From: Octopus vulgaris
Lineage: Eukaryota
Direction of reading: 5' to 3'
Length of the DNA: 64,000 bases
Assembly (NCBI GenBank): GCA_951406725.2
Contig: OX597815.1
Location: forward strand, 93,620,001-93,684,000
The notes beneath the pieces are model-generated. The model was not told the DNA's origin. It was given only the letters and a program-made list of their open reading frames with translations, and made no database searches. The position numbers and the translations under genes are program-made. This document shows positions 1-1,998 of the stretch, one piece after another (positions within the stretch are counted from its first letter, which is position 1; the number at the start of each line of letters is the position of its first letter).

Positions 1-162
1 ATGCATCTCTCACTACATATAACCACACACTAAAAAAGTAGTAAATACATTTAGAAGAACAGTTTTTCCAGTTTGTAAAACTACAAACAGAAGGGTAGAT
101 ATTCCAGTATCAATTGATTTTGCTTTCTATGTCGAATTGACCCTTAAAGTTCATCAATTCTC

Positions 163-315
163 TGTTTATATATTGTGAGTAAGGATGAATGGCTGCCATT
201 TCTAGCAGGCAGGTATCCAGTACTGATGATGGGTGGAGATCCAGAAACAATGGTCTACTGGTCTTGCCAAGCAGGAGGGGAGTGGTTCACGCCCTTACTT
301 ACAATATATCAAACA
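163..315. mobile_element. Fold-back element with terminal inverted repeats enclosing the hammerhead
   Basis: TGTTTATATATTGTGAGTAAGGATGAA (163-189) is the near reverse complement of TTCACGCCCTTACTTACAATATATCAAACA (286-315). Confidence 0.65.
202..274 (+). ncRNA. Type I hammerhead ribozyme
   Basis: CCAGTA-CTGATGA(223-229)-TGGGT ggag ATCCA-GAAA(244-247)-C aatg G-TC-TACTGG. Stem I is a perfect 6 bp, stem II is 5 bp with a tetraloop, and the GUC cleavage triplet ends at 255. Stem I extends through an internal loop into GGCAGG/CTTGCC. Confidence 0.85.
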
Positions 316-484
316 TAGGTTGTGTGTTGTTAACCAGCTGGAAAAGATCTTTTCCTGGGGTTAAAATGTAGTAACATAATTCTGTATAGAACAGCTATGT
401 TATAGTCACAAAAAAATATTACTGTCTCATATTCTTACTACATATATTTTGAGATTTTAGAACTCACTACTTTGCTTGTGTGTA

Positions 485-520
<36 letters not shown>

Positions 521-527
521 TATGTAT

Positions 528-1998
528 ATCATCATCATCATTATCATCATCATCGTTTAACATCTGCTTTCCATGCTAGCATGGGTTGGACGATTTGACT
601 GAGGGCTGGCAAACCAGATGGTTGCACCAGTCTTCAATCTTGATCTGGCAGAGTTTCTACAGCTGGATGTCTTTCCTAATGCCAACCACTCCGAGAGCGT
701 AGTGGATGCTTTTACGTGCCACCGGCATGGGGCCAGTCAGGCGGTACTGGCAACGACCTCACTCAAATCTTTTACACATGCCACCGGCACAGGTGCCAGT
801 AAGGTGATGCTGGTAACGATCACGCTCGAATGATGTCTTTTATGTGCCACGGGCACGGAGGCCAGTTAGCCGCTCTGGCAATGATCTTGCTCGGATGGTA
901 CTCTTAACACCCTACTAGCACAGGGTTCGAGTGCCAGTAAGGCAACTCTGGTAACGATCACAGTCGAATGGTGCCTTTATGTGCCACTGGCATGGGAGCC
1001 AGTTAGCCGCTCTGTCAACGATCACACTCATATGGTGCTCTTTGCACCCCGCTAGCACGGATGCCAGTCATTAAATTTGATTTTGATTTTGATTTCACTT
1101 GCCTCAACATGTCTTCACAAACAGAGTTTTAGTGTCCAAAGAAGGAAAAGGTATGCATAAGTGGGCTGGTTATGCTCCTGGCATAGGCCACGAGATTATG
1201 GTCTCATTTGGCTTGCTGGGTCTTCTCACGCACAGCATATTTCCAAAAGTCTTGGTCACTAGTCATTTCCTTGGTGAGGCCTAAAGTTTGAAGGTCGTGC
1301 TTCACCACTTCATCCCAGGTCTTCCTAGGTCTACCTCTTCCACAAGGTTCCCTCAGCTGCTAGGGTGTGTCACTTTTTCACACAGCTATCCTCATCCATT
1401 CTCACCACATGACCATGTTCCTCTTGCACACCACATCTGATGCTTCTTAGGTCCAAGGTACTTACACTCTGTCGTGTATGCACACTGACATTACACATCC
1501 ATTGGATCATACTGGCTTCATTCCTTGCGAGCTTACGCATGTCTTCAGCAGTCACAGCCCATGTTTCACTGCCATGTAGCTGGCTGTTTGTACACATGCA
1601 TCATACAGTCTACATTTTACTCTGAGCGAGAGGCCTTTTGTCACCAGCAGAGGTAAGAGCTCTTTGAACTTTGCCCAAGCTATTCTTATTCTAGCAGCTA
1701 CACTTTCAGTGCACCCTCCCCCGCTACTGACTTGGTCACCTAGGTAACAGAAGCTATCAACTACTTCTAGTTTTCCTTCCTGGAATGTGGCGGAAGTTGG
1801 TCTCTGTGTATTTTCAGAGTTTATTGCTCCCGAGCATCTGCCACATACAAAAACTATCTTCCCAGTTAGTCTTCCTTTGGTATTACTGCACCTCTTATGT
1901 GTCCATAGCTTACACTGGGTACATCTTATAGAGTTTCTACCTATGCCTCAACTACAGATCGAGCAGGGCCATCTACCTGAAGGGATTTGTGGTTTCTC
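528..1998 (-). mobile_element. 5'-truncated RTE-clade LINE (RT C-terminus with PHD-like insert, 3' UTR, (GAT)n tail)
   Basis: Minus-strand translation WPCSIC..SIRCTQCKLWTHKRC..FVCGRC..LEVVDSFCYLGDQV..ARIRIAWAKFKEL..LHGSETWAV, with stops and frameshifts; 3' UTR ends in (GAT)n. Confidence 0.9.
709..1075 (-). repeat. Tandem array of ~60-70 bp dual-hairpin units in the RTE 3' UTR
   Basis: About 6 units of TTTTAYGTGCC-nnn-GGCAC...GCCAG-N~10-CTGGYAACGATC. Confidence 0.8.

Follow-up and report, generated by a model that had tools for sequence, protein, structure and literature searches.

The window analysed here, a 64,000-nt stretch of the 2.8-Gb Octopus vulgaris genome (G000:C2:93620001-93684000), contains at positions 163-315 a fold-back tipped by a hammerhead ribozyme motif, which raises the question of what kind of element this is and where it begins and ends. 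The initial annotation took it for a MITE-like self-cleaving mobile RNA of about 150 nt, closed into one long hairpin by its own inverted arms. We found that the repeat is a known kind of animal element, not a new 150-base one. The fold-back is the middle of one worn, truncated copy of a 352-nt repeat, an old and likely member of the metazoan non-LTR retrozymes, the boundaries of which had been placed wrongly. All features of the copy described below lie on the + strand.

The rod and its hammerhead motif

The segment 163-315 folds into a single rod with a minimum free energy of -65.6 kcal/mol, compared with -39.5 ± 3.8 kcal/mol for shuffled sequences (z = -6.94), and none of the 200 shuffles was as stable. 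Its ends are held together by 27 terminal base pairs (163-190/285-315). At the tip (217-261) sits a type I hammerhead motif, found once in the window where 0.03 occurrences are expected. Helix I (208-268) consists of a perfect inner stem of 6 bp (217-222/256-261), an internal loop (214-216/262) and, beyond it, the GGCAGG/CTTGCC pairing (208-213/263-268); it shows compensatory changes across the families described below. The 5′ core strand is CUGAUGA (CTGATGA in the DNA, 223-229), helix II (230-243) carries a U-A pair at its base and a GGAG tetraloop, and the remaining part (244-255) comprises GAAA (244-247), a 2-bp helix III and GUC (253-255), with the cut predicted after C255. The core agrees letter for letter with C3-U4-G5-A6-N7-G8-A9, G12-A13-A14-A15.1 and U16.1-H17, and the fold with the hammerhead is 3.7 kcal/mol less stable than the minimum fold. 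The initial annotation had read all of this correctly: the rod-shaped fold-back, the complete core, the perfect stem I, the tetraloop-capped stem II and the further pairing. An Rfam search, proposed there as a check, did not recover the motif: at E ≤ 10 no hammerhead model was among the 9 matches, nor among the 63 matches of a second scan. The matches obtained were microsatellite-driven miRNA and snoRNA matches only.

The repeat unit and its copies

A genome search with 163-315 gave, from the best 40 of 255 candidates, 41 matches that were 81-89% identical (self-match apart), and the similarity among paralogues extends past the rod on both sides. Followed in the 3′ direction, the copies return to the sequence that lies 5′ of the rod, which makes the repeat a unit of 352 nt joined head to tail. 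This unit, which we call family A, is non-coding and has a GC content of 42%. By its identity to the majority unit and its end class, the window copy (158-479) is a single 5′-truncated insertion that runs from unit position 86 to 352 and then from 1 to 60, where it stops at a long, tailed 3′ end. It matches the tandem majority unit in 287 of 327 columns (88%) and covers 93% of it. From the fold and the piece boundaries, the rod is a prolonged helix I of the hammerhead that lies inside the unit and does not represent terminal repeats. A 3′ hairpin domain follows (316-424), blocks of which are also kept in family B (see below); other copies have a short 3′ end, which corresponds to about 413-428. 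The tail between the short and the long 3′ ends, about 60 nt, is found at 425-479 and has the character of a Penelope-type extension. A GT/ATAC/AT microsatellite adjoins the 3′ end (480-523) and, judging from its sequence and from the (TA)n at family B ends, is likely the target site.

A 24-mer of family A has 18 exact and 48 one-mismatch matches genome-wide (control 0), a ratio that translates arithmetically into about 225 hammerhead-bearing copies, roughly 10% diverged. We fetched 65 loci, 30 of them with the rod as the query, and kept 52 after dropping 13 duplicates. At these 52 distinct loci the main piece has a mean identity of 88% (69-92); it crosses the unit seam at 35 of them and is longer than one unit at 23. 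The 860 nt at another locus (L098) amount to 2.4 units in tandem.

These copies bear directly on the reading of the rod as a self-cleaving MITE-like element of about 150 nt bounded by terminal inverted repeats. MITEs are short and non-coding, with a long fold-back, and their ends are set by terminal inverted repeats with a target duplication. Family A is likewise short, non-coding and strongly folded back, the 27 bp of terminal pairing are real, and one aligned piece (in L065) spans the rod only. However, the other 81 of 82 pieces are not restricted to the rod, even though the rod had served as the query for 30 of the 65 loci, and in the window itself the homology goes 164 nt past the right arm. 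With no more than that one piece limited to the rod, the MITE-like reading fails. The inverted arms lie within the unit, its ends do not fall at the arms, and target duplications are not evident. None was found at the window copy, where the longest shared flanking word is 3 nt. Elsewhere the shared words are mostly microsatellite, long ones occurring at 8 of 51 loci as compared with 4.1 on average, and 9 at most, in mismatched pairs. Hence the arms do pair over some 27 bp, as had been claimed, but they do not close the element, which runs on to 479 and, in paralogues, far upstream. We regard a separate 150-nt element as scarcely credible.

The claim that stood was the broader one: a type I hammerhead, its helix III palindromic and very short, in a non-autonomous mobile family with kinship to retrozymes and Penelope elements. 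Metazoan non-LTR retrozymes have been described from coral, from Mytilus mussel (350-390 bp) and from axolotl (Rtz331 and Rtz353) (PMC7229834; vertebrate survey 10.64898/2026.07.22.740005). They are non-coding units of 170-400 nt with less than 45% GC and one type I hammerhead per unit, occur as tandem and dispersed copies, have a short palindromic helix III and are found together with Penelope-like elements (PLEs). In these respects the octopus units resemble them: 352 nt in family A, close to the mussel units (PMC7229834), and 360 nt in family B, each with one type I hammerhead. Head-to-tail dimers and multimers are dispersed in the genome, though the window copy itself is 0.93 unit. Neither an ORF, an LTR nor a tRNA head accompanies the unit: its longest stop-free frame has 54 codons, no ORF is joined to it at the 52 family A loci, and no tRNA head was seen in the 4 loci scanned. 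Family A shares a mismatch at the base of helix II with the axolotl HHR_Amex2. Unlike the known retrozymes, families A and B have C at core position 4, and family A is old and mostly in 1-2 units, with cleavage predicted from sequence. The two fixed 3′ ends and head-to-head arms described below are not reported for retrozymes in the available text of PMC7229834 and 10.64898/2026.07.22.740005.

The family extends the non-LTR retrozymes to the octopus genome. We found no literature on cephalopod retrozymes, and supplements, for example those of PMC7229834, could list cephalopod elements. No cephalopod term occurs in the supplementary text of PMC4209133, one file apart. The accessible part of PMC6962438 counts 235 Rfam Hammerhead_1 loci in the giant squid without describing them, and PMC11662667, as far as available, is on twisters.

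Core decay and sister families

A comparison of the window copy with 80 aligned copies that cover the hammerhead shows that the canonical appearance of its core is partly an accident of decay. Core positions 4-5 are CG in 40 copies, TG in 15 and CA in 14. Because they vary like the other CpG sites of the unit, the ancestral core was CCGAUGA. Judging from this pattern, the canonical-looking U4 (T224) in the window copy is likely a CpG transition. Of the 80 copies, 22 have an intact core with C4 and 11 one with U4. At position 10.1 most copies (61 of 80) carry an A opposite another A, where the window has its U-A pair, and loop II is AAAG in the family versus GGAG in the window. The description of the hammerhead as near-intact thus applies to the letters of the window core but not to the family, with its C at position 4 and its A.A mismatch. 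The window's CAATGG had been recognised as one change from the palindrome CCATGG, and the family bears this out: the commonest form, in 37 of 80 copies, is ACCATGGT, with ACCAUGGU as helix III. The responsible letter, A249, breaks the dimer palindrome and changes the predicted self-duplex energy to -1.4 kcal/mol, compared with -12.6 kcal/mol for the majority form. With less than one unit, 12% divergence, a single hammerhead and a lost palindrome, the window copy is likely dead, as far as its letters tell. Core divergence in family A is 5.8%, compared with 8.8% at other non-CpG sites, which we did not use as evidence because the loci were fetched with core patterns. The locus itself, a decayed copy, is of little import. 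Its wider lesson is that, through CpG decay, a dead copy can come to resemble the canonical ribozyme more closely than its active ancestor did.

Divergent relatives were sampled by a single pattern that combines the core with a palindromic helix III; it has 890 matches in the genome (control 1), and 98 of the 100 matches listed belong to one family, B. Family B is young, with a 360-nt unit that is 98-100% identical among 10 variants, and its 27-mer with the C4 core has 798 exact genome matches (control 0). It has a U.U mismatch in helix II. Families A and B align end to end with 199 identities in 335 columns, and are colinear outside the core as well (score 97 versus 56 ± 11, reached by 0 of 500 shuffles). 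Family C is about 61% identical to both A and B and has many copies, about 90% identical to one another, among them L103:5076-5318 (G000:C14:47998575 region) and L179-L208; a first look gave 3825 candidates, a number that TA repeats in the query may have raised. It combines the canonical CUGAUGA core with the palindromic helix III ACUCGAGU. Relatives D (L172:1859-1945) and E (L085:1-330) are diverged and represented by one example each, and in E the palindromic helix III is shortened and the core changed.

Covariation over 7 sequences of these 5 families supports hammerhead helices I, II and III with an open-ended helix I. Pairing is formed in 87.6% of cells, and 9 of 14 pairs are changed on both sides (0 of 500 shuffles; 0-2 in slid controls). 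Both figures lean towards pairing, since motif and model guided the choice of sequences. Even so, helix I changes almost wholly across families, and helix III is palindromic with three different sequences. The pair 10.1-11.1 is formed in only 2 of 7 sequences. This mismatch and the C4 majority core count against the retrozyme reading, as do the lack of an Rfam hammerhead match and the lower stability of the hammerhead fold in the window copy. According to PMC3088659, in the part available, U4C lowers activity in vitro but still allows viroid infectivity, and a U.U mismatch can open helix II. The same non-standard core, together with the tandem arrays, could speak for spread at the DNA level, by a satellite-like or rolling-circle DNA process or by Helitron capture, with the hammerhead a passenger or inactive. 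Against this stand the helices, which covary across five families, and the manner of insertion: 3′ ends that are fixed, 5′ starts that are not, and two-armed inversions are in keeping with target-primed reverse transcription. We consider DNA-level spread very improbable.

Insertion footprint and the source of the enzyme

The 3′ ends of family A fall at two fixed places about 60 nt apart. With end windows that were drawn after the data had been seen, 25 of the 52 loci have the short end and 13 the long one (38 of 52, versus 7.5 expected), and the 5′ starts are scattered, lying in the same windows at only 8 of 52. At the 19 loci with head-to-head copies a long end is paired with a short one in 10 and like with like in none, the other 9 having at least one end of another kind. 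The 3′ end of the window copy is of the long class and is followed by the microsatellite described above; the 10 kb that precede the window (L066) contain no partner arm. Family B presents the same picture in a fresher state. In 21 stretches examined, some of them overlapping and 2 without the family, we distinguished 13 two-armed insertions, in all of which one arm ends at unit position 256. The other arm ends at 210 in 10 of the 13 and at 212, 200 and 185 in the remainder, and the insertions run into (TA)n. The short and the long ends of A and B fall in corresponding places. The largest family B array has 14.7 + 8.4 units, and one stretch with two-armed insertions in (TA)n is G000:C1:161875000-161885000 (L167).

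This footprint is that of PLEs, for which 5′ truncation, an inverted 5′-truncated partner, a tail of 30-40 bp on one end and a bias towards microsatellites have been described (10.1101/2021.04.23.441226, in the part available). Families A and B display all four, their tails (46 and about 60 nt) being longer than the range given for PLEs. Hence, the most likely explanation, in which we have considerable confidence, is that 158-479 is one old, 5′-truncated copy of a 352-nt non-coding type I hammerhead repeat, likely a non-LTR retrozyme and likely pasted by a Penelope-type reverse transcriptase/endonuclease. The movement of retrozymes by PLEs had been proposed on grounds of co-occurrence and sequence (PMC7229834; 10.64898/2026.07.22.740005), and the fixed ends, the tail and the inverted arms support that proposal as it appears in the accessible parts of these sources.

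From what is observed (the length of the unit, its dispersal, copies in tandem and head to head, two fixed 3′ ends, targets rich in TA, no ORF and conserved helices), the following cycle can be envisaged. In outline it follows the model of PMC7229834, in which tandem units are transcribed, dimers cleave, the product is ligated, and a PLE enzyme carries out target-primed reverse transcription around the resulting circle. A tandem locus would be transcribed, as proposed there. Dimeric cleavage after GUC, in which adjacent hammerheads pair their palindromic helices III, is the predicted next step: with palindromic helices as short as these, monomers cleave poorly and the ribozyme acts as a dimer (PMC4209133, available in part). 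The unit RNA would then be ligated into a circle. A borrowed Penelope enzyme would nick (TA)n, prime at a fixed site of the RNA and copy round the circle for 0.5 to 15 turns, often twice. The result would be two back-to-back arms with ends that differ by a tail of 46-60 nt.

More tentatively, and with somewhat less than even confidence, we propose that the families represent successive waves of one retrozyme lineage, with at least five families that range from 12% diverged to essentially identical. The weakened hammerhead, with its C4, mismatched helix II base and palindromic helix III, would act as a gate, cutting transcripts only when they are in tandem and sparing the unit circle. The Penelope enzyme would then prime twice at two fixed sites of the circle to give the two-armed insertions in (TA)n. 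If gate and double priming are true, the spread of retrozymes would be tied to Penelope enzymes by an insertion footprint, and the families would form a natural series in which to test how far the hammerhead of an active retroelement can be weakened. Family B, with its C4 core in 798 exact copies, is a better object than the window copy for tests of cleavage, circles and mobilisation.

The same tail, inversions and microsatellite targets would be expected if the unit were the pseudo-LTR of an unsampled autonomous PLE and the copies its 5′-truncated ends. PLE pseudo-LTRs do carry type I hammerheads with a palindromic 15.2-16.2 region predicted to act as dimers (PMC4209133), features that family A shares, and 150 of 6136 GIY-YIG candidates were scored. 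However, upstream the copies re-enter the unit's own 3′ end and not an ORF, as is seen where the seam is crossed (35 of 52 loci), and they reach 2.4 units in tandem in family A and 14.7 in family B. Matches in a tblastn search with PLE proteins were found at only two of the 52 family A loci, in both cases apart from the insertions, and none of the 52 has an RT + GIY-YIG ORF between pseudo-LTRs. Unlike PLEs, the family A unit has no ORF and loops on itself, and unlike the minimal-type hammerheads of PLE pseudo-LTRs its hammerhead combines a long helix I, interrupted by an internal loop, with a short helix II, as in the canonical type. We therefore consider a present-day pseudo-LTR unlikely. Descent is another matter: retrozyme units have been derived from PLE pseudo-LTRs (10.64898/2026.07.22.740005, in the part available), and this unit, too, may be descended from one.

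Candidate enzymes are present. A genome search for GIY-YIG (PF01541) gave 148 matches among the best 150 of 6136 candidates, many of them in open frames of 781 codons. The three PLE-like proteins scanned all end in GIY-YIG and two also match RVT_1, so that intact Penelope-like ORFs with a C-terminal GIY-YIG exist in this genome. No pseudo-LTR homologous to unit A or B was found by BLAST among 30 GIY-YIG loci and 8 longer stretches, a small part of the 6136, or by covariance model R1 over 38 sources. The Penelope helper is inferred from the footprint because no PLE locus examined shares terminal sequence with A or B.

Two of the loci are of interest in themselves. L103:1321-4483 (G000:C14:47994800-47998000) is a young Penelope-like element with a C-terminal GIY-YIG, TA flanks and a 766-bp inverted terminal copy of 100% identity; the hammerhead core in its terminal repeat is CCGAAGA, i.e., it has C4. 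A match at this locus that might have marked an autonomous partner proved to be a copy of family C that is separate from the PLE and lies some 600 nt past its end. L097:1245-3587 (G000:C16:20836700-20839100) belongs to a young multi-copy Penelope-like family that ends in (TA)n and has an intact 781-codon RT + GIY-YIG ORF; a relaxed scan of it gave no hammerhead with its parts in circular order.

At the RNA level, a search of sequencing runs with family B returned no RNA run among those listed. Three runs from three studies, the RNA nature of which is only a guess, contain one 390-nt contig that covers a family B unit plus 30 nt; because a circle, a tandem transcript and DNA are indistinguishable in it, we do not count it as evidence. 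Contigs over the hammerhead obtained with window 1-1200 come from other copies because they carry the family-majority letters at 235, 236 and 249.

Also of note is the neighbourhood of the window copy. An unrelated, very abundant repeat starts after an ATC run and occupies 560-1200 and beyond, with internal sub-repeats of 63-138 nt (700-1060) and very high contig depth. Furthermore, the segment 517-575 has an inverted match within the window at 2391-2449.
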